Positions 3,001 to 63,177 of a DNA stretch of 64,000 bases are shown piece after piece; position 1 is the stretch's first letter; every line of letters starts with the position of its first letter. Under the pieces are notes generated by a model. That model ran no database searches, was not told the origin of the DNA, and worked only from the letters and a program-made list of their open reading frames with translations. The position numbers and the translations under genes were made by a program. The stretch lies in assembly GCA_905178155.1 (NCBI GenBank), contig CAJINV010000010.1, forward strand, positions 1,222,709-1,286,708. The letters run 5' to 3'. This stretch comes from Amoebophrya sp. A120. Taxonomy: Eukaryota > Protista > Dinoflagellata.

Positions 3001-6000
3001 CCTATCAACGAGCAATTGAAGCAAATCAACCGCGCGGACTACTGCGCCCCCGGCTACAGCTTTCCGGGGGAGGATATCCTGTGCAAAAGTATCGTACTCG
3101 TAGTAATCGCAAACATGCATTACAAATCTTGCTCTTAAGGCAAATCCGCATCACAAATTTTACTTCTCATGCTGTAATGCATTTATACGAGTACGATACT
3201 TTTGCAATGCATAGAGGAGATGCCAGTTTGCAAAGAGGGGGACGAGAAAAGCGGGAAGTTGGATCCGTTGCCTTTTTGTACCCAATCGGCGGACTTCTGT
3301 CCGGCGGTGTCTTCATTGAAGTCTATGGTAGAATCGATCCCCGCCGGCGTGAAGGACGGAAAAGCGGTCGTGAAGTGCAGCGCCGGGTATGTTGTCACCG
3401 GGGAGTTGCTGGCGGGGAGAGTAGAGACCGGCGCCAGAACAGAGGACGTCGACATGCAACTAGATATCACCTGTCAAATGCTCTCCACTTCCACCAAAGG
3501 CGGGAAATGGAGTCCGGATCCGAAAAAAGTTTGCGAATTGAGGAAAAATTACTGCGGCGAATTGCAGGTGAAAAATGGGTTCATGCAAACAGGTGGAATA
3601 AAGCAAGGGGAAGGTCAACAGATGAAAGTGAAAAAGCTCGGGGAACAAGCGATTGCCGTCTGCAACCCGGGGTATGAAATCGCGAATGGGAAGTCGAATA
3701 AGCACAACTGTGTGACTGATGGGTTGAAACAGGGGAAATACCAGCCGGAAAGGGCGACATGTGTGAAGATCAAGAATTACTGCCCCCCACTGTACAATAA
3801 CGAGGAAAATCACTGGGTGACGGACGTGCAGTCCGGCGCCCTGGGGGAAGAGGCGAAAATTTCCTGCGAGGCCGGGTACATGTTTCCATTTGCTGTTTCG
3901 AAAATCGGCAGTGCAGAAGCTGATGCCGGTTCAACAGAAGACTTCATTTTCGAACACACAATCACCTGCGCGCTCCCAGGTGGTGGCGAGTCAGCAGGCG
4001 CACAACTTATTCCTGGCGGAACCGCATCTTCACCTGGAACTACATTCGCCAACCCATCAACTTTCAACGACGAAGAAGGTTTTTGGACCAACGTGAAGCA
4101 CTGCGTCCCCGTTCCGGACTATTGTCCGAAAAACGTAGAGCTGCATGACGAGAACAAACGACCAATGAAAATTCTCAAGTCCGGCTTATCAAATGTAAAA
4201 ATGTCTGGGTCTGGAAGAATGCAACTTGTCATGCTGCATTTGGATTCAAGAAAAATCTGTATTGCATGAGTACCAAAAGGAATGTAATTTTTGCTACGCG
4301 GAGAGGGCATTTTTCATGCGGAATAGGCATCCAGAAGCTCTGAAAAAATCTGTGATGCTAGGGCATGCATCACAGACATCAGGGCTCATGCAAAACGTGC
4401 ATGACAAGTGTCAGAATGTTCCAGACCCAGACATTTTTGCATTTGATACGGCTCGATCTCCGATGATCTCTTCGCTTCTGATGTCCAATGCCTCAACCCC
4501 GCGTACACGAAACTCAAAGAGTCCCGCGGCAGTATCTGGCGGGGGCAGAGCTTATCCCTGCACAAGAAAGCGGCAGTCTGTCTTGCGGACAAACAGAAAA
4601 TTGGGAAGTGGGAGATTTACGGGAAGTGCGAGAAAGCGGAGAATTTTTGCTTCTCCAGCGAGGAAACAGATAAACACTTAACGTGTGAGAAACTGCCGGC
4701 GCTTCAGTTTGAACAGTCCGCGTCTGTGACGATCTGCGCGAAGGGGTATCTGGAGGAATCGGTGCTCGATTGGGAGGTGAAATTAACGTGCTCCGAGCAA
4801 GCGAAGGGGGCTTCCTCACCTTCTCCCACCTCATCGCAAACACAAGACGACGATGATGACATCTCGAACCGTGGGCAGTACCGCGTGACCGGGGTGCACA
4901 GTGAGAGGAAGCACATTAGTGACGGATCGATCTTGGATGGAAGTAAACTGAAATGCTTCGCGTCCAAGACCTACTGTCCGGATTTCAAGCATATGAAATG
5001 TAAAAATGTCTGGGTCTGGAAACTTGTGCTGCTGGGTGGCGTCTCATGATGAGGCTACAAATGCTGGCTCAGCATGACAAGTTTCTGAGGTCCTAGGTGT
5101 TGCCTAGTCTGCATGACAAACTGCGCTTCTGCATCACAGAAAAACGGAGCTCTTGGGTAATGTGCATGACAGATTTAAGAGTCATGCCAGACACGCATGA
5201 CAAACATGAATTCTTCCAGACCCAGACTACACTTTTACATTTGATAAAGCACGTCCCAGTTGTCCCAAGGAGAAAAGGGTTGCCGAAGGAAATGGAATTC
5301 CCGAGGTTGTTGAATTCCAGATTTCCTATAAAAGAACTCTGCGCGATCGGGTACGAGCCCGCGAACCCGGAGGAGGACTACCTTGTCTGCACCGAAGACA
5401 GGTATGCGCAGGGGAAATGGCTGGTGTCGAATTCACTCGAGTTGACGAGCAAACAGAAAAAAGCGAAACAGGATCAATACAATTGCGAGGCGATTCAAGA
5501 TTGGTGTCCGGAAGTTCTCGATGTCGAGAAAAACACGATCAGCAGCTCAAAAATCGCAGCCACCGCGCAAATCACCTGTCAACCGGGGTTTACGACGAGC
5601 TTTTTGTTCCAAAACAGCAAATTGAGGTGCATGGAAAAGCGGAAGTGGGGGTATTTGAAAATTGTGGATCCGAGTAAGTATCAACAAAGCACGTCTATGG
5701 CTGGTACTACGCGAGGGATGAATATCCCACGAACAAAGTGTTACAGTTACACATTTGTACGTGAATTCAGCAACACAAATTTCTCTGCATGAGAGAGAAA
5801 ACTTGTAATGCAGAATTTCTACGGGAAAACACCTATGAAACGAGGCTCCTATGCATATCCTGCATGACAGAGCTTGTCTGTCTTGCTTGGCCTGCAACCC
5901 AATGTGTAACTGTAACACTTTTTTCTCGCGATAATGAACAATATTTTTGGCGATTTTGACCTGTTTGGATTCGGGGGGACAACGGCGAACGGATATGCAG

Positions 6001-9000
6001 TGCAAACGTAATTTGGTAGTCGCACTAGTAAATTGTAACCATGCATAACAAATCTCATGTCTTAGCCAGATCCGCATTCCAAATTGCATTTTTTCTCTTG
6101 GAAAATTTGTATTGCAATTTTATCTACAAGAACTACTACGATATTTTTGCAATGCATAACGGACAGAGAGCTGGTGGTGCAACTGCAGTGACCATTGACG
6201 ATGAAAAAATCCGGGATGACCGTCTGCCGCCCGGGGTGAAAATGATGTATTTCGAAGGCGTTCAAGCGCACCAAAATAATCCGAGCAGTACAGACAGTAT
6301 GGGACCACAAGCCGCAGTCGTGTTGACCGATGCGACCCCAGGCAGCACACCGGGCGAAGATCGCGAGGTATCCTGAGCGAAAACGTCCCCTGCGCAAAAA
6401 CGTTCTAGAAAATGCTTCTCATGGGGCCCCGCATGAGAAAAATTTTACGCATGCTGATTTGCATGACAACGTATGAAATGGGGACGTTTTTGGATAGGAT
6501 ACGAGGACGATCTTCTGTGCGAGAAGAAGGAAGACTACTGTAAAGCAGTCCAAGAGCAGTCCTTCAGTATCGAGCCCGGGCTGATCAACGAAGTAAAATC
6601 TGTGGTTTGCGCCGATGGCTACGAACCCTTTGCCGCGGTGAAAATTGTACCTGGATCGATGGAACAAGTGGAAGACACTGGTGTTCCAAATATCAACAGC
6701 CAGATCGGACAGGAGGAGGACGACGCAGAAGTTTCATCTCCCGTGATTATCACTGCGAAGCCAAAAGAGCACCAGGTCCGCTGCGCACCGTCCGCCAAGG
6801 ATCCCCAAAACCTCGGAGAATATTTCGGCACCGACCTGAAAAAAGCGTGCGTGCCCAAGAAGAATTACTGCCCCGATTTGTCGAAGATTGTGGATCCAAC
6901 GACGGGCGAGAAGACGTTGCTCACACCGTTGCAAAACAGCCAGATCAACGAGGAGAAGAAGGTGAGTTGCGCCGTCGGGTATGGTTGTGCGGAATGTAAT
7001 ATGAAAAGGCAATTTTTGTTGAAATGCGTATCAAGCATAAGCAACGTAATTTCATCATCAAATGCAGCATCTTCGGGTACTACCGATGTTATTACCGGTC
7101 AGTGGCAATTAGCGGAGAAGTCCATGCGAGGGAACAAGCCGATTTTTGAAAACCGGAACCCTTGCAAGCCGATCGTCAGCTACTGTCCAAAGGACCCGCA
7201 GTTGGCGCCGTTCGGCGGGCCGGTTACGAAGGAAATTGAGATCTTCGACTTGAAAAAGCAGCTCGGGGAAAACTTCTGCAAAAACGACGAAGATATCGGG
7301 TTCCGGCTGAATCCGAATGAGGCACCGATCCGGGCGGAGTTGAGCGGGCCGCTGGGTGGTAGAAGTACAACTGGTTTGACGACTTCTATCGACGAAAGTA
7401 ATAGTGCCCTGCCAGCTCCACCGGCCCCTTACATTCTGCAGTGCAAGCCGAAATCGGATCAAGTCGGCGAATGGCGGGTAAGAGTCACCGCTTTCCCCAG
7501 CATCCCGCCGATCGCATTGTCCGATTTCAAACTTTGCTTACCGGCGAGTTGTGGGGCGAATGTCGTTACTTACAGCGGATTCGGGCCGACGAAGGAGGAA
7601 ACGGGGACGAAGAAGTTTCCGAAGGGGAGTGTTGAGAAAATCCAGTGCCCGGTTGGGTTTTCTTTGAAGAAGGACTTGGAGAGTTTGATTGAACAGATTT
7701 TTCCAGCGACCACGACAGGAGAAAAAAACTCAAAAACCGACAACAATAAGAATAAACTCCAAGCCACACTGAACAGAGACACTAACACCGTCGAGCTTCG
7801 CTGCAGCCAGCACATTGAAAAGCCGACGGAAGATTTTCTCTCCTCCGCACTCGATCCCGACTTCTACTGCGAGCCGAAGAGTTGCCAAGCGGGAAAGATC
7901 ACGAACGGGGAGATTCTCGACACGCACATTTTCGGCGAGCGCGTCTTCCCGAAATGCGATCTGGGTTTCGCGGGGAAGCCCTGCATGTGTGCGGCGAATG
8001 GGGAATTCGTGTACTTGCCGGCGACGACAAATGAGAAAAACAACGACAAATTCGGCGGAGAATTCGAAGAGGAAGAGGAGGAACGGAACAGGCCGTGGAA
8101 TTTCTTCGGCGGCTTCGGCAGTGGGGGAAAAACCGTCGATACAACCGCCGTGTTGCAGCAGGCGGACACGGCGGGAACGAGTTTAGAGCCTTGTGCGTGT
8201 AAGCTGTCCAAGTCTTTTTGCAACGAGCGGTCGGTCCCAGATTTACCCTTGCAGGGGAGGAGATTGACAGGTTTGGGCGATCAACCTGATGTAGCGCCTG
8301 GTCTTCAAAAGCAAAACCAGCGCCAGGCCGCTGTACAGGAACCTCGAGGCTTGCGGTTGAGACGTCGGCTGTTTGGAGACGAGGAACAAGGAAATCAGAT
8401 CGTCGCGGGGGCCGGCGGGGACAGGAAGATTTACGGCTCCTTCCGCCCCTCCATTGACGCGGCACTGGCGGAGACGAGGTACTATCACTGTCCGGATAAC
8501 ATGGTTTTGCCGAATAACCAGCATTTTGTCGAGGTGAAATGCATCGAACCGACGGAATCAACAAGCAAATCGAAGAAAGACCAGCATAAACGAGTGCAAA
8601 GCACGTCGAGTCCCATCGGGCAATATGTCCTCTCCACCACGAACGAGAAGTTTGATTTGAAGAATTACCAGTGCTCCGCCCAGCGGTGCCCGGAGTCCTT
8701 GGAGCAGTTGAAAAAAGTCGGTTACGAAATCCTCGACACGAAAGACAACACCTGCAGCGACGTATCCACTACAAATATGTCTGGGTCTGGAATAAAAGAG
8801 CGAATTTGTGATGCATGTTGCAGCCGCCCACACAAAAATCTGTGTTGCATGTCTTGCACAAGATCCCCACTTCTGACCATGTTGCCGAGAAGCGATTTGT
8901 CATGCAGACTAGGTATCACCATTTTTCACCAATAGGAGGCAGAACCTGTGATGCTAAGCCCTGCATTCCAGATTTTGTTGAGCTTGGAAAAATTGCATGA

Positions 9001-12000
9001 CAAATCTCGCAATCTTGCAGACCCAGACATGCGTGCTATCCATACGCCTCCGTCGGGGGCATCTGCCAGCTCCGCTGCGAGGGGGCGGACGAAGCTTGGG
9101 AGGTGTTTACGTGCAGTGACAGCGGAGAAAATGTTTCGGATCAGAGTCATGTTGGCGGAGGCTCGGCAGGACAGCAGGGGGCCGCTTCTACTAGCAAAAA
9201 CAAGTACAGCTGGGTCTCGAAGGACACGAAGGTAAAGTACAAGATCGATCTGAACCGCTGCCAGTCGCCGATCACGCTGATGTATCAAATGCAAAAATGT
9301 CTGGGTCTGGAAGAATGCAAGTTTGTCATGCTTGTCTGGCATGACTCCAGAATCTGTGTTGCATAGGCACGAAAAGGCCCTCGAACCTGTCATGCAAAAA
9401 CGCAGTTTGCCATGCGGAATACGTAAGACGTGGCAGCCAAAGGGTTTGTCATGCATAGCTGCGTACTGCAGTGCTTCTATCATTCACTTTTAGCATTACA
9501 AGTTTCCAGACCCAGACATATTTGCAGTCCATATGATGCTGCAAGACGCGATGACGAAGGAACCTGTTACGTTCAGCCAAATCGACTCTATATCCTGTGC
9601 AAAAGTATCGTACTCGTATTGCAATCATGCATTACAAATCTTTCTCTCCAGGTAAATCAGCACTACAAATTTTATTTCTCATGCTGAGGAAATTTGTGAT
9701 GCATTTATAAGAGTGCGATACTTTTGCAGTGCATACTCTATCGAGATTGAGAACGAACTCTACGGGAACCGAAACCTCCAGATCAACACGAAGCAGTTGG
9801 CGAAGAAAAACCGCGCCGTTTTCACGTGGCAGCAGGGCGACGTGGGGCAGTTGGTTTTGTCCCCGAAGCAAACCGCGGAGGCGCAGACCGGGATTCAGTT
9901 CAAGCAGGCCAGTCAGCAGTACGGTGAGCAATTTATCGCGAAGGATTTGGCGAATCCAAACCGGAAAATGCTGTTGTTCCTTCTGGACCGGGTTATGGAC
10001 CACGGAGACGTCAACGAAGACTGCACGTTCGCCGGGGAAATTTCCTCCTTCCGCGCGGTGCTCTGGTGGGACCAGTACCCGAAAGATTTGGATCTGTACG
10101 CGACCTACATGGAGTGCATCGACCAGGTGTACGATCTAGAAACCGCGATTGCGGATTCCCACGAGTTCCTCTCCTTCGGGGAAACAAAATCGACCTCGAA
10201 GGGCGGGCAGAGCAACGGTGACGGGCAGGTCCACATCAACTACCCGCGGATCACTGACGATGCGATTGAGGCGGACTCAGGTACCGCGGGGAAAACGACA
10301 GACCTGTGGATCTGGTCGGTCAACCCCACGCCAAGTTACGCGATTTCGTACCAAATGGGTTTAGTCGTTGGGAAATCGGGAAAGCCGGTGTACAGCCGGG
10401 CCACGGGGACGGGGCATCCTTATCCTGTGTAAAACCGTCCCCACCTCCCCGTGGTCAAAATGGCAGATCTGCTACACAAGTCAAGAAGGTTTTGCTGTTG
10501 CGCATGACAAGTGTAGTCGCGCGCAGCTGGTGGAGTAGCTGGTGCAGTCTGTCGCATTGCAAGTCAATTTTTTTATGCTGATTCGAGCATGACAAATTTC
10601 CTGATAGTGTTGGAAATGCCCGTTGTATATTGAGGTGCGCATGAGAGACAATTTGGGCACGCAGATTTGCATGACAAGCATGGGATGTTGGGGACGCTTA
10701 TTGTCAGGATAATCCCCGGGAATTCGCCACGGATGAGTTTGACGAGCTGAAAAAATGGTACAAAATATCAAACAAAAAAAGTTCGTCACGATCACTCATG
10801 CGCAGTTTTGCAATACAAAACTTTCTGTCATGCGTCAAAATGCATCACGGCCAAACTTCAGAAGGGGTTTCCTTTGAGTGTTTCTGCAATACAAGAAAAA
10901 CCTGTGATGCTGGAAAAGTTTCTCATGCAAAGCCTGCAAGTTAGTGACTGTGACAAACTTCTTGCCTTCCATACAAAAAGTACCCAGACGTGGAAAAATT
11001 GCCGTCTTTTTACCTCCCGTTCGCGAAAGGGATATCAAATGCAAAAATGTCTGGGTCTGGAAGAATGCAACTTGTCATGCTAAATCTGGATCATGTATTA
11101 AAAATCTGTGTTGCATGATTTCCAAAAGCTGTCCACTTTTGACCTAATCGAGAGGCAGTTTCTCATGCAGGATAGGCATGATAGAACTCTCACAGAATCT
11201 GTCATGCTATTTCCTACATACCAGGCCTCATGGGTCATGAAAAACCTGCATGACAAGTCTGGCACTCTTCCAGACCCAGACATTTTTGCATTTGATAAGG
11301 GAGCAGTGGTGGCATCAACTCTGGTGCAGCTGCAGGCGGAGCTGCTACTGCAGGAGACGACGAAGGCGGCGTCTCCTCTGGGTCGGAGAGCGATAGTAGT
11401 CCCGGGGCCCCGGGAGCAGGTGGGGCAGGAACAACATCTTCGCAGAACACCGTGATGAAAAAGCAGGACCTCGCCGCGCGGAAGCACCGGGCGGCTTTTG
11501 GCAACCCCATGACCTTCTTCGCGGACAAGAAATTCGAGAAATTCAAGCACTACGCGACTTTAGATATCCGCGAAGCCGGCTACGACGTTTGCCCGATCGT
11601 GTCCTGTGCTTCTAAACTGCAGGAGTTGCGGTCGAGCAACAAGAAAGTGGCCATGTTTGACAAGAAAAACTGCGTGCCCACGATCAACCAGCGGTCAAAG
11701 TGGGTCTCCTGGATTATCGCAAGAAAAAACTGTTTCGCTGTGAACTTGTGATGCAGAGAATGGGGCACAGAACGAGCTGTCTTGCTACACCTGCAAGACA
11801 TTGGATTTTTTAGTGTGTTTTCACTTGGCAAGCGCGCATGCCAAATATTTGGTGTCATGTGTAACTTGTGATGCCGATCTTGCAAGATCATCACAGTGAA
11901 GCAGTTTTTTCGTGGGATATGGATCAGCCCGCTCTTATATGCTCTGCAAAAGTATCGTACTCGTAGCAATTGCTGTTATGCATGACAAATCTCTTTTCCA

Positions 12001-16222: not shown

Positions 16223-17404
16223 GACAGGACTGGTATGTTAAATTTTGCGATAAAAAGCGCAAGCGCTGGAAGTACTTGGATCTTTAATGCCAGCGACACA
16301 GCACTTTTCACATTTTTTGATTTCTCAAAGCTCAACGCTTTTTCTTTTTTTGCCCCTATCTATTTTTTGCGAATGAAAAAACAACAAACCGACCCTATTT
16401 TCGTACATTATAACCAAAATACAATGAAATTTAATTCCAAATTCATCATGAATCCAATTTTATCAATACTACCGTCTTATTTTCTACTGCTTTAGGAGCA
16501 AGCAGTATTGAGCTACGCTGAAAAACAATTCAAACTAAAGCCAACGACAATAGAATTTACAACCTACATGTACATACGCTGATCTTTATTTCGCAGCTTT
16601 TCAGAAGATGATATTTTTATTTTTTCGTGGCCTCAGGATCGTAGCCATCGTCGTAGCACAAGGAATCTCCGACTCAGTTTCACCTTTTTGCGTGGCCTGT
16701 GTTTATTTTTCGGTGGAAGCAATCTCCACAGGATCACGAAAAAAAGTTTTGCAGCTTATCTTCAAGTACTTATTTCTCGTCGGTGTAAAGAGATACAACA
16801 GGATACCAAAAGAAGGGCATACTAGTCTCAGGGGCCGCGTGGCTTTTCCCACATTTAGGTTCTTTGCTGTTGAAATGGACTTTATGTATCTACGGCAGTT
16901 CTTGTGGTGTTCATACACATTTTAAAGGCGACACCAGAACTTATTTTCTAAAAGCACGACTCCGTGCCCTTTCGAAGATGTCTGTCCGGCAGCGCTGCAA
17001 GAGATCACCCATTCCTAGGTCTTCAGTGACTAATTTTCTCTCCTGAGCTTCTCTCTATGGCATTTTCATTTTCTGAAACACTTTTCCGAAGCTCAAATGG
17101 TATTGAATTGATTTCGGTTACAACACTTACAGCGACAAAGAGGGTCTATCAACAACTAAACGCTGTTTTCGTCTAGACTGTGCTTCTTGTTTGGTTGTTA
17201 GAATTCGAAGCAAATTAACAACCCGTACCGAAACGAGTTAAGTTTACGCAATTTTTGACATTGACTGCAAGGAACGCCATGAGGTTCTAGTTTTTTAGTT
17301 CTAGACAGCAATTCCAGTAGTTGAATAAAGGACCTTTGCAGCGAACAGAATTCCTCTGCAGTTGTATCCAGCTGCACCACAATACCTCGTTGATGGTAAT
17401 CACG

Positions 17405-51700: not shown

Positions 51701-54700
51701 TTAGTTCTCATGTTGGCTTTTGTATGCCGTGTTCTGGCGAGAAGGCACTACACAGAAGGCATGACGCACGAATACAGCGAGTCCCATGAGGCTGACGTAG
51801 GGAGCAATAGAGCTAGTGTCGGTGAGCCTGCCAGCAAAAGGAATAAGCAAGTGAGGTAGCAGACCAAAAATGCACGACGAAAACCACAACCACATGGCTT
51901 GCGGTTAAACCGCCCCACACCCGACCAGACGCCGAAGATGCTCGGGCTCGGTCCAGAGGACATGGAGGACGACGACGAGCCCGAGTTCGTGAGCCACGTC
52001 TACTGGAACATGAATGGTTCGGGCGAAGCGAACACGGAGGCGCTAGCCAAGCTAGTAGCGGACTTACGGGCAACAGAGGCGGCGGCGGTCGAAATAAAAA
52101 AGAGCGAGCTGGACCTTGAGCAGGCAGCTTTTGAGGGCTTGAGTGAGCGGAAAGGTTTGCACGTTGTCGCCGCGACAAATTTGGTCGGCATCTCCACCAG
52201 CCTCAAGTGCGGCGGCGGCATGATAGCAGATTGCAACAAAGTGAGAGAGCGGCCGGCCATGGTGATCAGCAAGCTCATACTTGCACGAGACCCGTGCGGC
52301 GCTTTTTTCACCGAGGAGATAACCGACAAAGAAGACGCCACTCTCTGGGCGGTCGGGGCGGTGCGAGACAGACGGTTGACGTTGACTCTATACCGAAGGG
52401 AGACACGAGTGCCAATCGATACGCCGAGCAAGTCCTTCATCGCCAAGCAGGTCGGCGACCTGATTAAGGAAATCACTACCGCCATGAACATGTCTGACTT
52501 GTGGATAGTGTCGGGCGACCTCAACGCATACCACGAGGTCGACGCGGAGGACAGGGCAAAGCTTGAGGACCGCCAGCCAGCTTGTGCGTTAGTGCGCGCT
52601 GAAGTCCTTGAGCCTGTTTTCAATTTCCTTAACAGTCGCACACGCTTTCAGAACACGCAGGGCCCAACGTGCTACCGTTCAAAAACGTCGCCGACGGTTA
52701 TCGATTTCACAGCGGTAGGACCCAGAGAGGGCATTTTGTTCGCCGCAGAGATACAGCGGGTGCAGGTCGTTCGGGGACAGCAGAAAGAGTGCAAAGCCAT
52801 TCCGGAAAACAGCCCGCCCGAATTACCAGAGGGCGACCACATTGCACTCCACACCGCCATTAGCTGGTATAGGCCGCAGGCACCACAGCCGGCACAGAGC
52901 GGAGACGCGAGGCAGCCAGGCAGCGGCGAAAGGGCGAAGCCGCTCGCTTTCAACGCGCGGCATTCGGAGCTTATTCCGACTGAAGGTGAGAGAGAGCGGG
53001 CGAAGATCCTGAAAGGACAGAAGGAATTTGCGGAGCGCCTCCCATTTTCGGGAGTAATATCCTGGCCCAGGGGTACAAAAACGACAGAGGTTCTGGAGCC
53101 ACTATTCGAGGGAGCACAGATGCCCGACATCGAGCAGGTCGGCCTGGAAGGCATCCAGAGCTGGGCGCAGGAGGTACTCCTGGACTCCGGTGCGTGCAGC
53201 TACGTACCGACCGAACCGACAGAGGACATGAGGCAGCTGTTCGAGCGACAGACACCCGGCCAGCGAGGCGGGAGAACAGAAGGAGCGAACGGCGCGGACA
53301 AAAAGAAAGAAAAGGAGAGAGAGCATCGGTCAATGTTCGCGGGGCCGGTAGATGGGTCTACGCTAAATAACGTCTATCAGCACGCGAGGCAGGCGAGAGA
53401 GCAGGTTCTAGGAGTCCGCCGCGGCGCCCCGGCGGAAGAAATCAAGAAGATCAACGCCGGCACGGCCACGGCCCCCAGAGAGGTCGTCGGGGTTGAGGAG
53501 TGCACGAAAGAAATTTCCTTGGCTCACGTTTTCAAAAGTGGGCGAATCCGGTACGCCGAAGGAAAGCGCCACACGTTCAGCCCGGAGGAAATGCAGCGCG
53601 CCGTCACGCAGTTGACCGAGGCAGCGAAAGGTCTACCGCCTCTGCGAATCCCCGCAGCCGAATTGAGGAGACACATCACGAAGATGAACAAAGAAGCCTC
53701 CGGCGCCGACGGGGTCCGCTTGCGGGCCTATGCTGCTATGACGGGCCAGCAGATTAGCCAACTCGCAGCCGGTTACGGCGCCCTCTTGCAGGGAATTGGC
53801 CTCGCGGATTGGATCCCGGGACAGAAGGACGCAACTTCGCCGCCGGCGCTGAAGGTGTTGCCGGTCGAGATCCTCCGGAAAGCCTCACAACTTGGCGGGG
53901 ACATCTCGAAGCTCCGGACGGTAATTCGCGGGACACCGGTCTACCGGATTATGTTGAGCTTCCTTACGCACCGCATGGCCCGCATTGCGGACCTTGGGGA
54001 CGCTTTTACCCCTTCCGGGGCCGCCGGAAAGCCGGCTGCTTCCTGCATGGCAACCGTTTTAGAAATCCTGAAGGTCTGCTACGCGGAAGACCTGCAGAAC
54101 GGCTGCGAAAACAAGGAGCGAGCGGCGGAACTGAGTGAGCAGGAAAAAACGAACGCAGCGAACTGGCTAACGATCTTGATAGGAATAGACGCCAGCAATT
54201 TCTACAATTGCATCAGCATACCAAGCATGGTGCGGAGTTTTCGCTGGGCGCGGTTGCACCCCACCTACATCAAGCTGGCAATGCTTTCAAACTGGCGGAA
54301 AACCCTCTTCCTGAGGAACGGGAGTTGCTTCGCAGAGCTCAGCGACCATCGAGACCTCATCCAAGGCTCGGTGGAAGCTATGCTTTGTGGCGTCCTGCTC
54401 TTTATGAGAGGAGTCACCGCGGTGGCGCGGTTCGTGGAGGAGTGCTTCGACGCGGCCGGGCGAATCGATGAGAAGCGCATCGACAGCGCAGGGGCGAAGC
54501 TCCGCCGAACGCTGCGCGAAGATTTTGCGGGGGGAGATGACACCGGCGTCACCTTCCCGGACTACAGGCCGGCGGAGGAGGTCCATGAGCTCTTCCGCGA
54601 CGAGGAGGGCGATGGCGGTGCAGAGACGGGAAACAGGACGACGAGGACCCGGAAGACCCGGAGCAAAGAGCACGAGAGGACGAGAGTCAGCCAGAGACTG

Positions 54701-57700
54701 CCGATGAGTGAGCGGGAAGAGAAGGCGCCAAGGAAGGCAGCCGTCGTCCAATTTGTGGATGGTGGTACCCTCTCCATCAAATTCCACAAAGACGACGCCG
54801 AAAAACTGCGGAAGCTGCTGAAAATAGTGGCCACAGCGTGCGAAACGATGCACGCGCCCGAAGGGCAGCACCTCGCGCCAAAAAAGGCCGAGATGCTCCT
54901 TTCCGCTTCGGCGATGGACCAGCAGGCGCTATATCTCGCAGCCTTCCGCCCCTTCGGAATTGTCTTCAACTTGAAGGAGTGCACCAAGATCCTGGGCATC
55001 ACGATCCGGCTCGGCGACATACGGGACCAGGTTGATGCAATTCGCAAGCAGGTCAACAATTCAGTCTCGTTCGCGCAGCACCTCCGCTATCGAGTCATGC
55101 GAAGCAAGGGCAATTTCGTGATGACTGGCGCGGATCATCGGTGGGTGGTCATCTGCTTCTACATGTCGCCAATCATCTACATTCTTCCGGTGCTCCGCCT
55201 GATTTGCGCCCAAAGCGACTGGTCCGAGTTACTTATCGAGATGGCGACTTCAATCGCGAAGGTTATCGGTTTCGACCGAGAGGTCTGGGAGAGGATGACC
55301 ACGATGCACAACGTCACGCCGGAACTTTTCCACCGACTGACTTTCAGTGAGAACATCCTGGGGATTGTAGACCCGTACGTGCTCGGGATCAAGCTCCTCC
55401 GAGGCGTAGCGCAGAGCAACATCCTTACCGACATTGATGGCTTCGTGACTTGGGCTACGTTCCCGATCCGCTTCCACGGCACCGGGCTTGCAGGAATCGG
55501 CGCGGCCGACCGCAAAGCAGTACAGGTAAAGACGACGGCGGACTTGGCATTGGTTGAGGCGTTGAGCGAGGGAGCGGAAATCAGGTTGCCGGCGAAGTCC
55601 GACCTCCGACTGTGCGGCTTCATCCCGGACAGGAGCAGCAAGCCCCCGCCGCCCGAAAAGGTCCCGCGGGCGTGCCACAATGAGAGCGCTTTCGTGGTGG
55701 CATCGGCGGACGGCATGGGCGTCCGACTCCTGCAAACAGACACGACAGGGCGGGTTTCGGTACTTCGGCAGGTACGAACAAAACGCGAGCACCTGCTCAC
55801 AGAGGAGAGAGCGGAAGAAAGACAGTTCGTCGCGTATCTGAGTGGATTTCTATCCCTCAGTTAGCAGACGGAACAAGAGGAGCCAGGAGTGCACTACACT
55901 CACCTACGTACAGGCTATGCGACTGCTGGCGACTCCGGGGAAAGACGCGCGGGCCGCTGCGCCGGGGCGAAGGAATGGCCGTCCATTTCGCCGAGCAAGT
56001 CGAGCAGATGCACTTGAGGGGCCACAGAGTTGAGCGAGCGAACACAAGAACGGCGGAGCAGGTCGCCGAGGCAAGCAGAGAGATGAGCACAGTGACTGCG
56101 ACCAAAATCATAGGGCTCAGCATTGTAAACGCAACCGGGCACGACCACGAGTACACAGATTGGCCTGTCTACGATTTCGGTCGGTGCGAAGGCTTTCGGT
56201 TTCCCCCCGCTGCGGGACTGGAAAAAGCGGCGCAGCCTCGCAGCGCGGCGTGAGTACATCAGAGACTCGCTGCAGTTCCAAGACCTCCAAAACGGCGAAA
56301 GCACAGAAGACGAGCATCCGGATAATGATCCGGCGGAGGTTGAGAGAGCGGCCGCGCGATCGCCGGCGCCGAAAGGAAGGGCGAAAGCACAGGCAAAGGC
56401 GAGGGAGCAGCCCCCCCAGGAGAGAGCGGCAAAGCCAAAGGCGAAGGCGAAGCAACCAGGCCCGCAACCGAAACAGCAACTGGCGAAACGAGCGCAGGAT
56501 GCGGACCCGGGGCCCCCGAGGCGGCAGGCGGCCGGCGGAAGGGCGGCGCAGGCGAAACAGAACCCGGCCCCAGCAAGGAAAGCAGTGCCGGCGAGGAAGA
56601 AGTAGATAGGGTAGCTCTAGGACGCAGACGGCTAGTTGAAGAAAAAAAAAAAACAGAAGACCTACTACACAAAAAGCAAAAAGGTAACAGGTAGGACAGT
56701 CAGTACGAAGACCGGGAAGTTTAGTTTTTTGCGCAAAAAGAAAAATATAAAAAACAGCACAAGGTGCGTGCGGAGGACACAAGGTGACCACGCGGGCGGC
56801 GTGTTCACCCAGGCGGGCGGCGAAGAGCCAGTGATGGCTGAGAGAAAAAGAAAGAAACGCGGCTACTCCGTAGCCATATGGTCTCTAGTTCCTTTGCACT
56901 CCGGGCGCGAGGCCCGCCAGGGTTCTCGTCGCTCGTGTATTGTCTCCCACGCCGCGACAGGGCCCGCGGAGCGAAGCCCTACGGGACACGGCCCGGACAG
57001 AAAAAGTAGCAAAAGCCAAAAAGAACAAACCGCCGGGGGCCTTATGCCACCCACCTTCGGCACGCCAGAAGGCCACAAGCCCAGCAAATCCAAAAGAACC
57101 GGCAGTAGTAGCAGTGCACTACCTAGATACTAACTAGCTTAGACGGGTCTTAGCCTTAGCGCAAAGAAAGAGGGGCAAGTCCAAGAGGCTTTTGCATGGG
57201 GTCCACTGGTCACCGTTTCGCGCGAGCCATTCGGTGGACGACTGACCCCGCCCCATTTAAATAGCCGCTATGCGGGAGATTTGTAAAAACTGGACTTCGT
57301 CCGTCTCCGGGTGGCGTGCCCGGGGTTCAGTCTAAATAAATTTGCCCGGGAAAATACCACGCAGCGGAGCAATCAGGCCTACTCGTAGGCCAGTCGGGGT
57401 CTACCCTTTCTCCACGTCGTCAAATGTGGTTATTGGGTTTTGTTGGCGTATGTCAGGGGATCCCTGTCTTTGGCATTTCACGACTCTTCCCATGGGTTCA
57501 CTTCGATGATTGCTGCCGGGGACGTTCTTAGGCAGTCAGCTGGATGACTGTGACCTGGCTCGTACTGTGAACGCAGCTGGATGACTGTGACCTGGCTCGT
57601 CTTCGATGGGCGGGCGGATGGCTGTGACCTGTCTCGCCCATCAAGATCCCTAATCCGTAGCTCCTAGACGTTGCCTGGCCCGCGAATGACTCCACGGCAG

Positions 57701-60700
57701 CCGGATGTCCGTGACCTGGTTATAAAGGGCTTCGTCGATCGATTGTGCCACTAGGGCCTTGTGTTCTGGCTACTCCGGATCGCAATCGATGGAGGGCGGG
57801 ACCTGCACCGGCGACAGGCGCTATCCAACCAACCAACCAAGCCTGGCAATCTTCCAGACCCAGACATATTTGCATTTGATACGAGTTTACACGACGCAAT
57901 TGAGGCGGTTCCGTTTGACGAGCCGTTTGCGCGCATTTTGGTCCTATGCACTGCAAAAGTGTCTGGGTCTGGATCTGGAAACTTGTGATGCTGTTTGGCG
58001 AATCATGTGGACGCCTTCATTGACAGCCAAGCATGACAAGTTTTGGAGTTCTTGCTATAGTGTTGCCTATCTGCATGAGAAACTGCGTTTGTGGTGCATG
58101 ACAGAGAAGTGTGGCTTTTGTGTGGCGCGCATGACAGACTTGAGACCATGCTAGCTGTGCATGACAAATCCTGCATTCTTCCAGACCCAGACATGTTTGC
58201 ATTTGATAGGTCCGCACCGATCAGGAGTTGAGACAGACTTTGGTTGTGAACAAACACGTGTTGATTGACGGCTGGCGGTTGGGCGGACCGGTGAAGGTTA
58301 CGATTAGGAGGAACAGGAACTACAAATGTGCCCGCTGGCGTCCAAAGCAGAGCGATCGTGCAGCAAGACGGAACTTCAACACGAACAAGGAAGTTTGCCA
58401 TGCAAGGCATAAAGAGCACAAACTAGCTCGCATCTTCTCGCCTCCCCTGCTCCGTGTGGAAGTCGGCGGCGAAAGGGCGTGGTTCAAAAATCTGTGCTTC
58501 TCGGTCGTGGAGGATGAGAGTGTACTGAGTGAAACCATCAGAGAATCCGATGGAGCTGCTGCGGAGCAAAGTTGTAGGACGGCCCGACTACGCGAGAAAA
58601 CCAAATCGCCCAAGCTGTTCTACAAGTCTCCGATGGTGGAAATCTGTTGCGGGCATCCGGGGTTGGATCCAGACCAGTTTGGGCGGGTGACAGAGCAGGT
58701 CGCAAAGGGACATCAACAAGTGCAAAATATATCAAATGCAAATATGTCTGGGTCTGGAAGATTGCAAGGTTTGTCATGCACATTTTGCATGACCCGTGAT
58801 GTCTGTGATGTATGCCCTCGCATCACAATGTTTTTGCGGGCATCTTGATACCTATCCCGCATGAGAAATGCCCTCTCCGCGGAGCTAAAACTGGACGCCT
58901 CTTGCTGCTCATGCAATACAGATTTTTTTAGATTCAAAATAGCATCACAAGTTGCATTCTTCCAGACCCAAACATTTTTGCAATCAATAAAATACACATG
59001 CCGACAAATCTCCACCTTCTCCCCCTTTCAAGCGAGACGAGCTCGTCGGCCCGTTTTTTACGCAGTGCAGGTTTCAGCGGGAAAGGGATGTTAATGACAT
59101 GGCGAACAAAACGTCGAAAAGACGCCTTCGGAGTAAGGCAGGTGTAGTAACAGTTGGCACTTCTCCTGCTTCAGGCTCAGCAGATGATGAAGAAGTTAAA
59201 CCACCTAAATCAGAAATACGGTGCTGTACCGCCACCGGGGCTGCTGGAGTGAAAAATAACGGCGAAGCTGAACAAGCCGCACGACCGGATGCGAACAAGT
59301 TCAGAAGAAAGGGACCAACTGAACAAGAAGGTGACGAAGTACCAGTAACACAGGACGACGCCGCCAGCGACACCGAGCTTCAATTTTCCACCATGTTGCG
59401 CATTCCGGATAGTGAGGAGGAAGCCAGTTGCTTTTCCTCGGGTGTTATCCACAGAAAAAAACCCATCCACATCGAATTTGTCATGCAAAACACGTATCAA
59501 GTCATGTGTTTGTCATGCAAAAAATGGTTGGGGATGGGTTTTTTTCTGTGGATAGGGGCCGTCAGTGACAGCACGACTTCTTGTTCGCCCCCGTCGGGGA
59601 GCGGGAGTGACAGCGCTGGCAAGCGCGAATCGTCCGGGCGCTCTGGTTCCAATCTCGGGATGAGAATGAAGAACGAGAATTCTTGCCAAGTCACAGCCGC
59701 GAATCCTAAGCAGGATTTTTGCCTGCCCAACAAGAAGAATCCGAGTAAGAAAGGCAGAAAAACTTGTTCTCTCCGTGAAAGGTACAAAAACCGTGTCCGA
59801 AAAGCAGCCATGACCGGTAATTTTCCAGGATTGCTGATGAAACCGAAAACGGAGAGGTCTGCCAGTCTGGAAAGGGCGCAAAACAAGCGGGACGCAGTGG
59901 AGTTTTTTGCGGAGGATTATAATAAGCACGAGGGTACTAATGCTTGTCTTCGCCCAACTTCTGCTATCCGAGAAGTGAGAGGTGATGGTATGATCGGGAC
60001 GCCAGCGGCGCGTCGTCCATTTCCTTGTTCCCCACAAAGCGCTGCAAATCATCTTTCCCCTTGGTGGGACCCAGCGGAGGCGCGAATCTACCTTGGAGAA
60101 ACAGCCCACCTACATCCGTTGACGGAAATCTTGAAAATCCGGGACCGGTTGGTCAAACTGCGGGAAAAATGGAATCAACTTGTGTGTGATTCTTTTTGGT
60201 GGAAAACGAAGGATCGGGCTGATAGCGAAAAGTTAGAGAGGAAGCAGAAAATGAAAAACAAGAACCCCACCTTGTTCTCATCTAGGTGTGGAACCACGAG
60301 GCACACGAACTTTATGATGCGGAAGAAAAGACGAGAAAAGCCAATATTGTGCCTGACCCAACAACAACCAGGAGTCAGAGCCCGTCTGAAGAGGAACAAG
60401 TTGCAGAACACCTACCAGCGTTTGTCTTCGGTCTTCTTTGAAGAAAGTGTCGGAGCTCCTCGTAGCACTACTTCGTTCGCGGCGGTGGACTACTACAATT
60501 TAGTGTTAGAGGAAGCTGACCGGATTGCAACGAAAGTAGCACTGCTGGATCTGAAGCTGCGGTCCGTGGATGTGGTTGGGTTTTATAGGAGAGAAGTATT
60601 GGCTTTGGCGAAAAACCAAAATGAAACCGCGAAGAATGATGTTGATCAGGATCTTGAACAACTACAAGCAGATGGTACAACTTGCAACGCTGCTCTTCTC

Positions 60701-63177
60701 TCTTCGATAAAACTTCGAGTGGAAAAACGGCGGAAAAGGCTGCAGAAAAGGATCAAAATTTGGCAAGCAGAGATGAAAGCGCATCATTCTGAGATAATTT
60801 TGATGAAGGAGCAGAAGGAGGAACAAGACAAATCGACCGCAAGACAGTTAGTCCCAGCAGAACCGGCAAACAAAGCACAAAATCGCAGCGTCATAATTGA
60901 AGCAGAGTTTTCGCCTCCGCTCAGTCTAAAAGGTCGGCCGCCTTCTAGCGGGGAAAACGACAGCGACAATTCGGCGTCGATCGGTTCCTCGGGAAACCAG
61001 CTGTGTGCCGACCGCGAAGATGTTGGGTCCGCTTCACCGCGGCTACAGATCAGAGCAGCAAAAACTACAGCCCACAGTGCCACCTGTTTCACACCGAGGA
61101 CCCTCAAAGGTCGCGTTGAGAAAAACAGCCCTCAAGAACGGCTGCATCACCAGGTCGAACTTCCGGCTGATCCGCGGGAGTTTCACGACAGCTTGCTTGC
61201 TATGAAATGCAAAAGCATCGTACTAGTATAAATCGCATGACAAATTTCCTCAGCATGAAAAATAAAATTTGTTGTAATGCGGATTTGACTTGAGAAAGAA
61301 ATTTGTAATGCATGTTTGCAATTACTACGAGTGCGATACTTTTGCACAGGATACTTGCAGAGACGCAGGGATTCGACATTCTCATCGGACCACAGAGGAA
61401 GTTCGTGAAGATCAGCGATAACGAAGAATTTGCTGACTTTTTGCAAGTTCTGAGCATCGACGATGAATTCGAGAATGAAGGGCAGGGACAAGTACTAGAG
61501 GGGGAACAGGTGGTGCGCTGTCACAACGACATGAACGACGAGCAAAAGCAGAGAATTTCTGCATTTGACCAGCCGCGGACAACTGTGCGGATAAAAGCAG
61601 ACTCCGGGAGGTCGAGGCCAGTTGTTTTCGAGGATGCCTGCTCTACGCCAGAGTTGAAGCGCGAAGTGGTCCTTTTCCCGGGCGATTGTCTGCTTCTTGC
61701 GGACAATAGCACTGCAATTGAGTCGTTACCCCGCTCACGGAGAACGAAAGGCGCCGTCTCAAAACATAGGAACTGCGCAGCGTCATCTGCAGTTGTTGCA
61801 TTTTTACGCGCTTGCAAGTACGGCCAATACTGTGGCGGGAAAGGACGCGTAGTTGAGCGGTCGCGGCAACCCCAGGACAGTGACCCAATCAGTGATGATG
61901 TTGAAGGACCTCCACAGCTGGTGGATTTCGAAGCGTTATTTCCGCTTTTCTTCACGTTCCGCAGCAGACAAACAGCCGCCAGCACCTCCGTCCCCCAGTT
62001 TTACCACTGCGGCTTCTTCAACGTGGGTATCGCGCTGAACCCGGAAAAACTTGTTCCGGTGGACATCAACAGCAACACCGTCCTGTCCTCTCCCCCACCA
62101 ACCCTCGAGACCCGGTTTCACTACTGCCGGTTCGAAAGCTCAACGATTCTCGCAACCGAAACTGCTTACCACCCAACGTTGCAGGTTAAGAATTCGGAGT
62201 TTTTTGAGAACGGTTTGCTGCGTGGTGGAGCTACGGCTGGAAACGGTAACGAAATGACACAAAGTAGGATTTCTACACCAACATCATCGGCCGCTGCTGT
62301 TTCGCGATCATCATATCTGTCAGCTGAAAACGACACAGAGAACGAGGAAAACGATGCGCCTGGCCACGCTAGTACAAATAAACGGACGACAGCAAGAGGG
62401 AAGGGTAGCCGCAGGCTTCCCCAAGCCCAACGCGGCGGCCTTGCCCTGATCGCGAACTACAGCTCAACGGGCAGGTTTCGCATCCAGGATTGCAAATTCC
62501 CGGTGTTGAGAAGAACGACGTGGGAAGGGCTTGAAGATGAAGATAATGGCCAAATGAACGAGTCGGCAGCTGCGGAGGAGCAGGTCACAGGCGGGGCGAA
62601 CAATAGCGCGGCTTGGGAGCAGCCGGGAGCTGTTATGCACCGGGCCGCCGAGCCTCCGAAAAAAAATCTAACGAATTGTAAAGATTACCACAGGACAACA
62701 AATTCAAGTGAGCGTCGAATGATAACGTTCGAGGATCTGAGAAGAGCGAATAGTGCAGCTGCTAATTTTGAAAGCCAGACATCTGCTGCACATGTGGAGG
62801 TGGAAATGGTGAGTAGTGTAGTTGCAGCCGAGAACAATAAAGAAGCAGCAAACAATAACAAATCTCCAGCACGACCAGCACAAGGCACCACTTGCGCAAA
62901 AATCAGGAAAACCACGGACAACTTTTCTTCTCTTGATTTCTTCCAAGAGTTAGAGCAGGGCGACAGCAGGAAAGGCAGCGAGGAGATCATCATTCCAGGA
63001 GCAGCTTCATCCGCTTCCCCCGGTAGCACCACTATGAGGTCCAAATGGATCATCTCGGGTTTCCGCCGGTGGAATTGTGAAAGGCTACCTACGGATGAGT
63101 ACAGCCTGACTGACGCACGGGAGCCGCGAGTGAACGCGGGAGGGAAGAGATGTTTTGAATTTATCGAACTTTCTTGA
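21786..63177 (+). CDS. Giant ~3,900-aa protein with an AEP (primase-polymerase-like) domain and a right-handed beta-helix-like segment; 16 exons
   Basis: Removing 15 TIR introns (each plus one 5-bp repeat, 29,692 nt total) leaves 11,700 nt in one frame. AEP-like motifs ERTTEVFPFVEDID, KISLHLVWP and DIFDD...GLRPPFADK (about 41320-42740). Beta-helix-type start VPDHFASLHDAIEAV...RILVR...LVVNKHVLIDG. It could be more than one gene, but no stop separates the parts. Confidence 0.7.
24507..25121. mobile_element. Non-autonomous TIR element (MITE) inserted in the LINE ORF
   Basis: ~22-bp imperfect TIR tcgc..agagcc..ccccggcg; 6-bp TSD caccga (24501-24506, 25122-25127); internal ~12-mer tandem array of (a)tttcttgtcta type at 24585-24790. 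Confidence 0.8.
26399..30308 (+). CDS. DDE transposase of the CxxH-containing (hAT-like) type, ~1,200 aa, 3 predicted exons
   Basis: Candidate catalytic motifs VQFDGTP, YVSDGG, CVLHGTH and IIRERAH. GT-AG introns 26862-27029 and 27143-27278 leave 3,606 nt in frame. Lies inside an element with an 8-bp TSD. Start codon uncertain. Confidence 0.7.
30711..36854 (+). CDS. Second, multi-exon gene of the hAT-like transposon; Lys/Ala-rich basic N-terminus, function unknown
   Basis: Exons 30711-30911, 32384-33581 and 34969 onward join in frame through GT-AG introns. Further coding-like ORFs (35284-36632) and a stop at 36852-36854. The 3' exon structure is not resolved. Confidence 0.55.
31169..32284. 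repeat. Foldback-like element made of repeated long palindromes, inside an intron of the transposon's second gene
   Basis: Terminal inverted ggagcgggaact/agttcccgctcc; perfect palindromes at 31451-31516 (66 bp) and 31865-31948 (84 bp) centred on gaattc; near-perfect copies at about 31320 and 31742; a second palindromic module ttcgccagc...gctggcgaaa. Confidence 0.85.
33713..34950. mobile_element. Non-autonomous hAT-type element inside an intron of the transposon's second gene
   Basis: TIR caggcggaca/tgtccgcctg; degenerate 8-bp TSD caaatcat/aaaatcaa; tgctaa/ttagca subrepeats. Confidence 0.7.
39131..39193 (+). repeat. 28-bp direct repeat pair in the LINE copy 1 3' UTR
   Basis: ggtattggcagaggctaaatctgttcta at 39131-39158 and 39166-39193. 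Confidence 0.9.
40568..40830. mobile_element. Introner-like TIR intron, family A
   Basis: Family A TIRs; direct repeat aactc/agctc; removal gives RKLAVTD. Confidence 0.9.
41484..41746. mobile_element. Introner-like TIR intron, family A
   Basis: Family A TIRs; direct repeat tcagt/tcagt; frame restored. Confidence 0.92.
41882..42035. mobile_element. Introner-like TIR intron, family B (ends ATG rather than ATA)
   Basis: Family B TIRs; direct repeat gtcta/gtcta; removal gives SGWSTEKHKMKISLH. Confidence 0.88.
43213..43840. mobile_element. 628-bp TIR intron/MITE (distinct family)
   Basis: ~43-bp TIR taccaa..gaattttgtctgcggct..attcaaaaattt; direct repeat ctccg/ctccg; an empty paralogous site is at 42887-42891. 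Confidence 0.92.
44594..44858. mobile_element. Introner-like TIR intron, family A
   Basis: Family A TIRs; direct repeat tgttc/cgttc; frame restored. Confidence 0.9.
45332..45542. mobile_element. Introner-like TIR intron (short, degenerate TIR)
   Basis: tatgct/agcata ends; direct repeat gcatc/gcacc; removal gives VVHHAIASF, in frame with the 45601 ORF. Confidence 0.75.
46177..46444. mobile_element. Introner-like TIR intron, family A
   Basis: Family A TIRs; direct repeat aaaat/aacac (2 mismatches); frame restored. Confidence 0.88.
46756..46895. mobile_element. Introner-like TIR intron, family B
   Basis: Family B TIRs; direct repeat acggg/acggg; removal gives RDGEKD. Confidence 0.9.
47662..47815. 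mobile_element. Introner-like TIR intron (singleton family)
   Basis: tat..aaatttcc / ggaaattt..ata inverted match; direct repeat gagga/gagca; frame restored. Confidence 0.82.
48833..50195 (+). CDS. Putative ORF1 of LINE copy 2 (two overlapping frames, 48833-49627 and 49344-50195; probable frameshift)
   Basis: Position upstream of the APE-RT ORF inside the insert; Q/G-rich with a coiled-coil-like stretch; no recognisable motif. Confidence 0.45.
51899..55864 (+). CDS. APE endonuclease-reverse transcriptase polyprotein (ORF2) of LINE copy 2; C-terminus continues in another frame (55975-56253)
   Basis: APE/EEP motifs YWNMNG, VSGDLN, TVIDF, GDH; RT motifs EASGADG, GIDASNFYN, LIQGSVE, QFVDGG, GQHLAPKK, KILGI; first ATG at 51938. 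Confidence 0.88.
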   Translation: MRLNRPTPDQTPKMLGLGPEDMEDDDEPEFVSHVYWNMNGSGEANTEALAKLVADLRATEAAAVEIKKSELDLEQAAFEGLSERKGLHVVAATNLVGISTSLKCGGGMIADCNKVRERPAMVISKLILARDPCGAFFTEEITDKEDATLWAVGAVRDRRLTLTLYRRETRVPIDTPSKSFIAKQVGDLIKEITTAMNMSDLWIVSGDLNAYHEVDAEDRAKLEDRQPACALVRAEVLEPVFNFLNSRTRFQNTQGPTCYRSKTSPTVIDFTAVGPREGILFAAEIQRVQVVRGQQKECKAIPENSPPELPEGDHIALHTAISWYRPQAPQPAQSGDARQPGSGERAKPLAFNARHSELIPTEGERERAKILKGQKEFAERLPFSGVISWPRGTKTTEVLEPLFEGAQMPDIEQVGLEGIQSWAQEVLLDSGACSYVPTEPTEDMRQLFERQTPGQRGGRTEGANGADKKKEKEREHRSMFAGPVDGSTLNNVYQHARQAREQVLGVRRGAPAEEIKKINAGTATAPREVVGVEECTKEISLAHVFKSGRIRYAEGKRHTFSPEEMQRAVTQLTEAAKGLPPLRIPAAELRRHITKMNKEASGADGVRLRAYAAMTGQQISQLAAGYGALLQGIGLADWIPGQKDATSPPALKVLPVEILRKASQLGGDISKLRTVIRGTPVYRIMLSFLTHRMARIADLGDAFTPSGAAGKPAASCMATVLEILKVCYAEDLQNGCENKERAAELSEQEKTNAANWLTILIGIDASNFYNCISIPSMVRSFRWARLHPTYIKLAMLSNWRKTLFLRNGSCFAELSDHRDLIQGSVEAMLCGVLLFMRGVTAVARFVEECFDAAGRIDEKRIDSAGAKLRRTLREDFAGGDDTGVTFPDYRPAEEVHELFRDEEGDGGAETGNRTTRTRKTRSKEHERTRVSQRLPMSEREEKAPRKAAVVQFVDGGTLSIKFHKDDAEKLRKLLKIVATACETMHAPEGQHLAPKKAEMLLSASAMDQQALYLAAFRPFGIVFNLKECTKILGITIRLGDIRDQVDAIRKQVNNSVSFAQHLRYRVMRSKGNFVMTGADHRWVVICFYMSPIIYILPVLRLICAQSDWSELLIEMATSIAKVIGFDREVWERMTTMHNVTPELFHRLTFSENILGIVDPYVLGIKLLRGVAQSNILTDIDGFVTWATFPIRFHGTGLAGIGAADRKAVQVKTTADLALVEALSEGAEIRLPAKSDLRLCGFIPDRSSKPPPPEKVPRACHNESAFVVASADGMGVRLLQTDTTGRVSVLRQVRTKREHLLTEERAEERQFVAYLSGFLSLS
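57537..57720 (+). repeat. Short direct repeats in the LINE copy 2 3' UTR
   Basis: cagctggatgactgtgacctggctcgt at 57537-57563 and 57574-57600, with degenerate copies near 57616 and 57697. Confidence 0.85.
57945..58208. mobile_element. Introner-like TIR intron, family A
   Basis: Family A TIRs; direct repeat ggtcc/ggtcc; removal gives RILVRTDQ. Confidence 0.9.
58730..58989. mobile_element. Introner-like TIR intron, family A (opposite orientation to 4187)
   Basis: Family A TIRs; direct repeat aaata/aaata; frame restored. Confidence 0.9.
59446..59554. mobile_element. Introner-like TIR intron, family D (109 bp), hidden in frame inside ORF 59099-61231
   Basis: Perfect 23-bp TIR tatccacagaaaaaaacccatcc; direct repeat ggtgt/ggggc; two tttgtcatgcaaaa motifs. 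Confidence 0.88.
61201..61353. mobile_element. Introner-like TIR intron, family B (opposite orientation to 3075/9591)
   Basis: Family B TIRs; direct repeat cttgc/cttgc; removal gives LLAETQG. Confidence 0.92.

Follow-up and report, generated by a model that had tools for sequence, protein, structure and literature searches.

Introners of Amoebophrya sp. A120 occur in both orientations and are removed from RNA, apparently at fixed distances from their inverted ends

The introners that interrupt the genes of a 64,000-nucleotide stretch of Amoebophrya sp. A120 DNA (hereafter, the window) are removed at the RNA level, and this holds for copies inserted in either orientation. The most likely reading, to which we give somewhat better than an even chance, is RNA excision by a system that pairs the element ends and measures distance from them. 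The preliminary description had proposed hairpin-directed RNA excision; joints and gaps in RNA contigs make end-directed RNA excision the best reading, with the pairing itself presumed.

The elements and the existence of introners in both orientations are known as such; what is added here is new, testable detail on a known system. In the parts of the article available, A120 introners are described as carrying an inverted repeat composed of TAT, seven less-conserved nucleotides and at least three As, together with direct repeats of 3-5 nt, non-canonical borders and a proposed hairpin (Farhat et al., 2021; PMC7789003). The window elements fit this description: their terminal inverted repeats (TIRs) start TAT-N7-AAA in the end profile, a 5-bp target-site duplication (TSD) is perfect in 255 of 327 elements, and they form repeated families with non-canonical borders that are removed from transcripts. 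Moreover, the host is A120, three exons being 100% identical to source-named A120 proteins. Judged by their sequence, the elements are therefore the introners already described. The same text reports that A120 keeps U2, U4, U5 and U6 and nearly all spliceosomal proteins while U1 snRNA was not detected, and it states as an open question how tens of thousands of non-canonical introns are removed without detectable U1; it also calls the intron border position unknown and restricts its analysis to introns of 40-1000 bp (PMC7789003). Introner orientation is not reported in that text, in which "orientation" has four matches, all on genes, and "strand" none. Within the literature searched, which included the available text of PMC12130899, PMC11282704, PMC12005148 and PMC12787238 and excluded subscription papers and figure images, no report was found of orientation, cut register or kilobase-scale nested copies in A120. 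Thus, even orientation, the position of the cut and kilobase-scale nested introners seem to be new additions to the A120 description. Introners that form introns in either orientation have been reported, in the portions seen, for Polarella and Aureococcus, at near-canonical sites and with an orientation bias (bioRxiv 10.1101/2020.10.14.339549), and one introner survey pipeline makes room for opposite-orientation copies (PMC9860276).

Forty-two elements were found in the window. They start TA(T) and end (A)TA, one ending TG, with inverted ends of ~25-30 bp and the 5-bp TSD outside them. The elements had been called TA-bounded: TA does stand at the ends, but it belongs to the inverted repeat and the duplication lies beyond it. 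Interiors of the named copies are not palindromic. Elements as short as 109 nt and as long as 9.5 kb were observed to be removed, and one of 17 kb is added by its open reading frame (ORF) only; nested inserts are tolerated. TIRs, a fixed-length TSD, a lack of coding capacity and dispersed copies in either orientation are all features of MITEs. TSD composition is near the coding background at four of five positions (chi-square p 0.10, 0.32, 0.79, 0.19 and 0.04 for positions 1-5; n = 255), and 87 mismatches in 327 x 5 sites correspond to a decay of 5.3% per site. When inverted repeats with a 5-bp TSD were sought without the motif, 243 of 250 matches started TA and 237 TAT, and 21 lacked AAA; peaks of 3- and 4-bp repeats in the motif-free search probably reflect palindromes within the TIRs. 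Positions 1-3 of the TIR deviate in 11/846 cases versus 204/3334 at positions 16-28. One element (2253..2505) has perfect 30-bp inverted ends without AAA at positions 11-13. A Pfam search of 16 window ORFs matched Sushi only and no transposase domain, with a weak hAT-like atlas lead (0.79) at 27282-30305; an Rfam search and a scan of viral_contigs each gave 0 matches. As a separate observation, TIRs come in two types, TATC.. and TATG.., which combine freely at the two ends of copies in all families (TIR positions 4-7, 10 and 14), and mismatches at TIR position 4 are C-C or G-G in 139/152, a pattern that suggests end exchange between copies or families.

Four host genes, all on the + strand, become continuous once each element and one TSD copy are removed together with two GT-AG introns. 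Host gene 1 (1..16222), open at the window start and encoding Sushi-like repeats, then reads through 3106 codons after the loss of 23 introners and one GT-AG intron (13985..14150, +, a control placed by RNA contig gap arithmetic); its last 2041 residues equal annotated protein P0001 except at one junction residue. Besides copies discussed below, its introners lie, without assigned orientation, at 2570-2846, 5723-5933, 5994-6158, 6369-6501, 9283-9533, 10766-10973, 11033-11297, 11715-11919, 11938-12969 (with a nested insert), 13032-13285, 13473-13694 and 13771-13911. Host gene 2 (17393..20546; 583 codons) loses 5 introners and one canonical GTATG..AG intron (18840..19040, +, a control missing from RNA contigs); its VMP1-like, SNARE-associated product (PF09335) aligns without breaks to homologues across all junctions and is 65% identical to an A25 protein. 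Host gene 3 (21780..45339; 1654 codons, ORF only) loses 6 introners, among them one of 17 kb, and host gene 4 (45544..63177; 2250 codons) loses 8, among them one of 9.5 kb. Further introners of unassigned orientation were found at 40568-40830, 41484-41746, 43213-43840, 44594-44858, 46177-46444, 46756-46895 and 47662-47815, and spliced protein P0089 crosses the one at 46756. Without any element removal the ORFs shrink, for example from 583 to 317 and from 3106 to 822 codons; with both TSDs left per site they span 846/565/415/617 codons, and with one TA left, as at ciliate internal eliminated sequences (IESs), 793/407/581/698. The earlier claim that removal restores the frame thus stands if the element goes with exactly one TSD copy, and fails if one TA is left. 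Two local features are also noted. The short gap at 45340-45543 between two long + strand ORFs may simply be intergenic, or it may be an intron that escaped detection, in which case genes 3 and 4 would be one; and gene 3 contains an exonic tandem duplication (42840-42960 and 43150-43900) in which introner 43213 occupies one copy only, the other being an empty site.

Named copies were compared as reverse complement versus same strand, with 30 nt trimmed per end. Family B copy 61201..61353 (-; TSD CTTGC) is reversed relative to forward copies 3075..3213 (+; TSD GAGGA; 73/54%) and 9591..9735 (+; TSD CTCTA; 80/55%). Relative to the forward A1 copy 4187..4448 (+; TSD CGGCT), the A1 copies 15652..15917 (-; 86/53%) and 58730..58989 (-; TSD AAATA; 80/53%) are likewise reversed, as is family C copy 19121..19405 (-; 76/54%, untrimmed) relative to the first 229 nt of 14429..15533 (+), a copy with a nested insert of ~0.85 kb. 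All the reversals originally noted therefore hold, each copy lying where its start had been placed, and four more were found: A2 copies 4992..5246 (-, by sequence comparison), 57945..58208 (-) and 22358..39349 (-; TSD CGTGT; enlarged to 17.0 kb by nested elements), and family B copy 41882..42035 (-), which ends TG instead of TA at its 3′ end. Reversed copies make up 8 of the 31 window members of families A1, A2, B and C.

Scoring orientation against the host strand more widely, as had been suggested, gave an about even result across the window and at least 147 listed loci. These loci (418 kb, all in one other assembly) came from a pattern scan of metagenome_contigs with a family A seed; the 147 listed contain at least 343 unique elements, versus 0 in 182,930 nt of shuffled sequence from 30 loci. 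Host strand was assigned with a codon model for which the window served as training set, right for 41/42 elements of that set and self-consistent in 59/65 listed multi-element loci; 35 elements without a strand call and 23 from six mixed loci were left out, and 285 were kept, 37 of them without a family. Forward-to-reversed counts in the window plus listed loci are 67:48 (A1), 30:25 (A2), 18:27 (B) and 18:13 (C), none of which differs from even, and the second assembly alone gives 110:105 among the matches listed. Family B taken alone stands at 11:25 among the listed loci and 7:2 in the window.

Removal was observed in cDNA-derived contigs of one sample (runs X3-X6, guessed to be RNA). X3 contigs lack both GT-AG introns, and the gaps separating their matched pieces (52, 158, 52 and 303 nt) each equal the prediction for exact removal. 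Together, these gaps span reversed 15652 (imperfect TSD; a 52-nt gap) and reversed 19121 along with nine forward or unassigned copies, several as sums only. Forward copy 14429 falls inside the 303-nt gap, family C copy 19855..20154 (+) is skipped, and the forward introners 15980-16128, 17435-17684, 17742-18004 and 19492-19641 (all +) are missing. Joints that skip the element plus 5 nt were found at reversed 61201 (61195 to 61354; X3 and X6), reversed 57945 (57939 to 58209; X4, short side 26 nt), the 109-nt introner 59446..59554 (59443 to 59558; X3, side 25) and the 9.5-kb A1 copy 48389..57881 (+; TSD CGAGT; 48383 to 57882; X4, side 58, depth 2.7), which carries a retroelement-like insert and is also crossed by annotated protein P0088. 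Removal in both orientations is accordingly supported: forward copies are gone from RNA contigs, and of the 6 reversed copies that the compared stretches contain, 4 are gone as well, the other two, 41882 (identified by sequence) and 58730 (absent from the ORF and the annotated protein), lying without RNA cover, as does gene 3 in general. Copies 3075, 4187, 9591, 4992 and the 17-kb copy lie outside both stretches, and removal of the last would follow from its ORF. Raw-read RNA runs X10 and X11 yielded 6 and 3 partial reads, none over exons, and a representative protein search returned one 142-aa protein, which crosses a perfect TSD only.

Conventional border signals do not account for these introns. 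GT/GC..AG at exact borders is possible in only 21 of 327 elements, and no register gives a dinucleotide consensus, which counts against the canonical U2 (GT-AG) class. That each orientation has cryptic canonical signals of its own can be rejected as well (7/155 forward and 10/134 reversed copies). At 19121, public annotation P0002 takes an in-frame GT..AG that adds a valine; the RNA contig gap is 158 and not 161 nt, and six homologues also lack the extra valine, so the available GT..AG is unused. Because this contig and these homologues indicate exact removal, similar miscalls may be common in the A120 genome.

The imperfect TSDs allow the cut to be placed. In RNA, the left TSD copy is kept through position 4 at 15652, whereas at 59446 (TSD 3/5 identical) the left copy is seen at position 3 and the right at position 5, giving a cut at 3|4 or 4|5. 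In annotated protein P0001, 3|4 or 4|5 fits at the A1 copy 8763..9044 (+; TSD 3/5 identical), and 4|5 or 5|TA fits at the 109-nt introner 14261..14369 (TSD 4/5 identical). A cut between positions 4 and 5 is the sole register that fits all four informative junctions, of which two come from the kind of annotation that errs at 19121 and one has a 25-nt short side. The imperfect TSD of forward family C copy 10421..10711 (+) is uninformative, being synonymous, and codon fit, mutation polarity and stop codons at the 87 TSD mismatches gave no register signal. We infer that the intron includes 1 nt upstream of the 5′ TAT and 4 nt downstream of the 3′ ATA; the cut thus looks like a directional rule applied to a symmetric substrate. 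Removal is exact even at TSDs only 3/5 identical.

Under the favoured reading, an RNA-level machine would recognise the paired TAT...ATA ends, brought together by the terminal stem, as tested in Euglena, and would cut at those fixed distances, with a catalyst acting apart from normal GT-AG recognition. Since 1 + 4 = 5, any 5-bp-duplicating insertion with such ends would become a seamless intron, and a transposase-type DNA insertion, which we presume, would account for the even orientation. Folding predicts a terminal stem in 263 of 314 elements, equally often in the two orientations (126/148 forward, 107/129 reversed), although it is expected from transposon biology alone, and the mismatch and energy tests, which gave no RNA-specific pairing signature, count against the pairing. 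No G-U excess was seen at TIR positions 1-15 (146 G-U versus 177 A-C); positions 16-25, one interval among the five compared, gave 141 versus 106 (p 0.03). Duplexes of the sense and antisense sequence have equal energies (-37.8 versus -37.6, p 0.93). Position 4 pairs in 175/327 elements and position 7 in 137/327. TAT is the only near-universal motif and is better conserved than the distal stem, and an asymmetry at its first T (0 versus 7 of 327 deviating at the 5′ and 3′ ends) weakens with unbiased detection (2 versus 7 of 260, p 0.18).

It had been argued that strand-symmetric removal leaves no possible role for a directional branch point or polypyrimidine tract. This does not follow. Over the terminal ~25-30 nt, forward and reversed copies of all four families have the same majority sequence, so a directional signal inside the inverted repeat is shown either way, and symmetry of orientation rules out interior signals only. 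A U-run (TTT) at -13..-11, for instance, is found in 143/155 forward and 126/134 reversed copies. The subterminal repeat GCATNACA was also considered as a symmetric branch point and rejected, lying near the 3′ end in 1/13 reversed C and 0/14 reversed E copies.

The strongest alternative, tentative in our estimate, is that a spliceosomal machine lacking only U1 responds to directional signals inside the inverted repeat, pairing being incidental. Its signals, a part of the proposal that we consider equally tentative, would be a start N-U-A-U-(G/C) resembling +2..+5 of GUAUG, the U-run, an A of the terminal ATA serving as branch point and a 3′ site chosen by distance. Several observations suit such a machine: the 4|5 cut makes the intron read NUAUS, and a canonical intron of the window starts GTATG; the terminal 30 nt are identical both ways; TAT is more conserved than the distal stem and its first T deviates less often at the 5′ end, at the p value given above; the stem has no G-U excess; and U2, U4, U5, U6 and nearly all spliceosomal proteins are retained, with U1 not found, in the text seen (PMC7789003). 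Against it, any of the four bases can stand at intron positions +1, -1 and -2, at frequencies near background, there is no common branch motif (GCATNACA having failed as a candidate, as described above), the U-run is absent in 21 elements and the GT-AG available at 19121 goes unused. We know of no spliceosomal class with four-base freedom at +1, -1 and -2.

Ciliate IESs are transposon-derived sequences that interrupt coding exons with TA at both ends, one TA being left as the duplicated target. Excision at the DNA level before expression, either in this manner, as the preliminary description envisaged, or by transposase cutting with microhomology repair, would suit a strand-symmetric TIR substrate with TA ends, and DNA was compared for a single 7.6-kb stretch in one run (X1), possibly the assembly's own source, with 362 joints hidden from that comparison. 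It is nevertheless very improbable. TA-to-TA excision leaves +7 nt and a footprint of both TSDs +5 nt, and either breaks the ORFs; the one-TA outcome restores the frame of none of the four genes, and RNA joints skip the element plus 5. Contigs of X1, a run whose cover is even over introns and intergenic sequence, pass from exon into element at 15504-15734, 13885-14571 and 19617-19916, and inside reversed 19121 their depth is 35-47, like that of the unique flanks, so elements are retained in this DNA at single-copy depth. Removal is exact at TSDs 3/5 identical although TSDs decay, and element sequence is abundant in RNA runs. On the frames of the four genes and this 7.6 kb of DNA, the ciliate IES class is rejected; in A120 the TA lies inside the TIR, a 5-bp TSD lies outside it and removal is seen in RNA, not DNA.

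That the joints are artefacts of reverse-transcriptase template switching at direct repeats beside hairpins is the least credible explanation, since, despite direct repeats and strong stems being a known artefact signature (PMC4176328, in the part seen) and all RNA data being cDNA-derived contigs, the genes collapse without removal while the VMP1-like product aligns unbroken to its homologues, and exact skips occur at 3/5 repeats and across 9.5 kb.

Among known systems, the nonconventional introns of Euglena, in the parts of the reports available, are among the closest to A120. They are defined by paired triplets with fixed spacers, N3-CDG..CHG-N5-6, a code tested by knock-in (Nomura et al., 2025; PMC12501133). 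Both systems combine a lack of GT-AG with an irrelevant interior length and with terminal motifs and spacers (short 5′, longer 3′) that are paired and fixed in Euglena and putatively so in A120, and a MITE origin has also been proposed for the Euglena introns (PMC12501133, PMC11282704). The Euglena type is further marked by a requirement for pairing and a circular excised product. However, the lineages are unrelated, and the CDG/CHG motifs with spacers of 3 and 5-6 nt, which the A120 elements do not carry, stand against TAT/ATA with apparent spacers of 1 and 4; the Euglena code was tested by knock-in, the A120 code deduced. TSD position 5, which under a 4|5 cut is the first downstream exon base, shows a purine excess in both orientations (164/255; p 0.005 uncorrected, 21 positions tested), and may share the weak purine preference described at the downstream exon start in the Euglena text seen.

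In Polarella glacialis and Aureococcus, as in A120, TIR/TSD transposons make introns either way round, according to the text available (bioRxiv 10.1101/2020.10.14.339549). Those introners recruit G[T/C/A]..AG from the TSD or the element, need particular targets and are orientation-biased, whereas the A120 elements have no dinucleotide consensus, target near-background sequence and are evenly oriented. The case of Fritillaria borealis is similar in that, in the parts seen, its non-canonical introners are MITE-derived with TIR ends, non-GT/AG and the majority of introns; they differ in preferring AG-AC and AG-AT at repeats and in spliceosomal removal (PMC11282704, bioRxiv 10.1101/2025.08.15.670264). 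Border bases in A120 come, instead, from a random duplication.

Intron removal in A120 is thereby narrowed to signals in the terminal ~30 nt with free border bases; what lies between the ends, even kilobases of it, is not needed, and the cut seems to keep set distances of 1 and 4 nt from the stem. Such a cut predicts precisely what public RNA reads and tests of lariat versus circle should show, and its apparent spacers point to convergence with the Euglena code. A wider proposal, which we advance with some hesitation and consider rather less than an even bet, is that A120 possesses a second, non-spliceosomal splicing system, convergent with that of Euglena, which takes its 1-nt and 4-nt distances from an RNA stem closed by TAT/ATA. 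Whichever way it points, wherever in coding sequence it lands and up to a length of 17 kb, any 5-bp-duplicating insertion would then become a seamless intron, and introners might serve as safe landing sites for retroelements.

Several nested inserts were noted in passing. Two related (41-45% by tblastx) non-LTR-retroelement-like inserts lie within introners at 48614-57830 and 22516-39235; their tails are (CCAA)n and (TAC)n, a duplication of ~16-18 nt at a GCATGACA motif accompanies the second insert, and ORF 51860-55861 of the first shows endonuclease- and RT-like motifs by eye, with no Pfam match. Inside the 17-kb intron, ~25700-38000 holds a multi-ORF cargo with apparent GT-AG introns and a 1030-codon ORF (27216-30305), possibly a large DNA transposon, and 31195-32100 is a block of long palindromes. 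Finally, introner 11938 (family B) and introner 14429 (family C) each contain a copy (12054-12940 and 14654-15475, respectively) of one G/C-skewed element of ~0.85 kb that includes a 13-nt tandem array.
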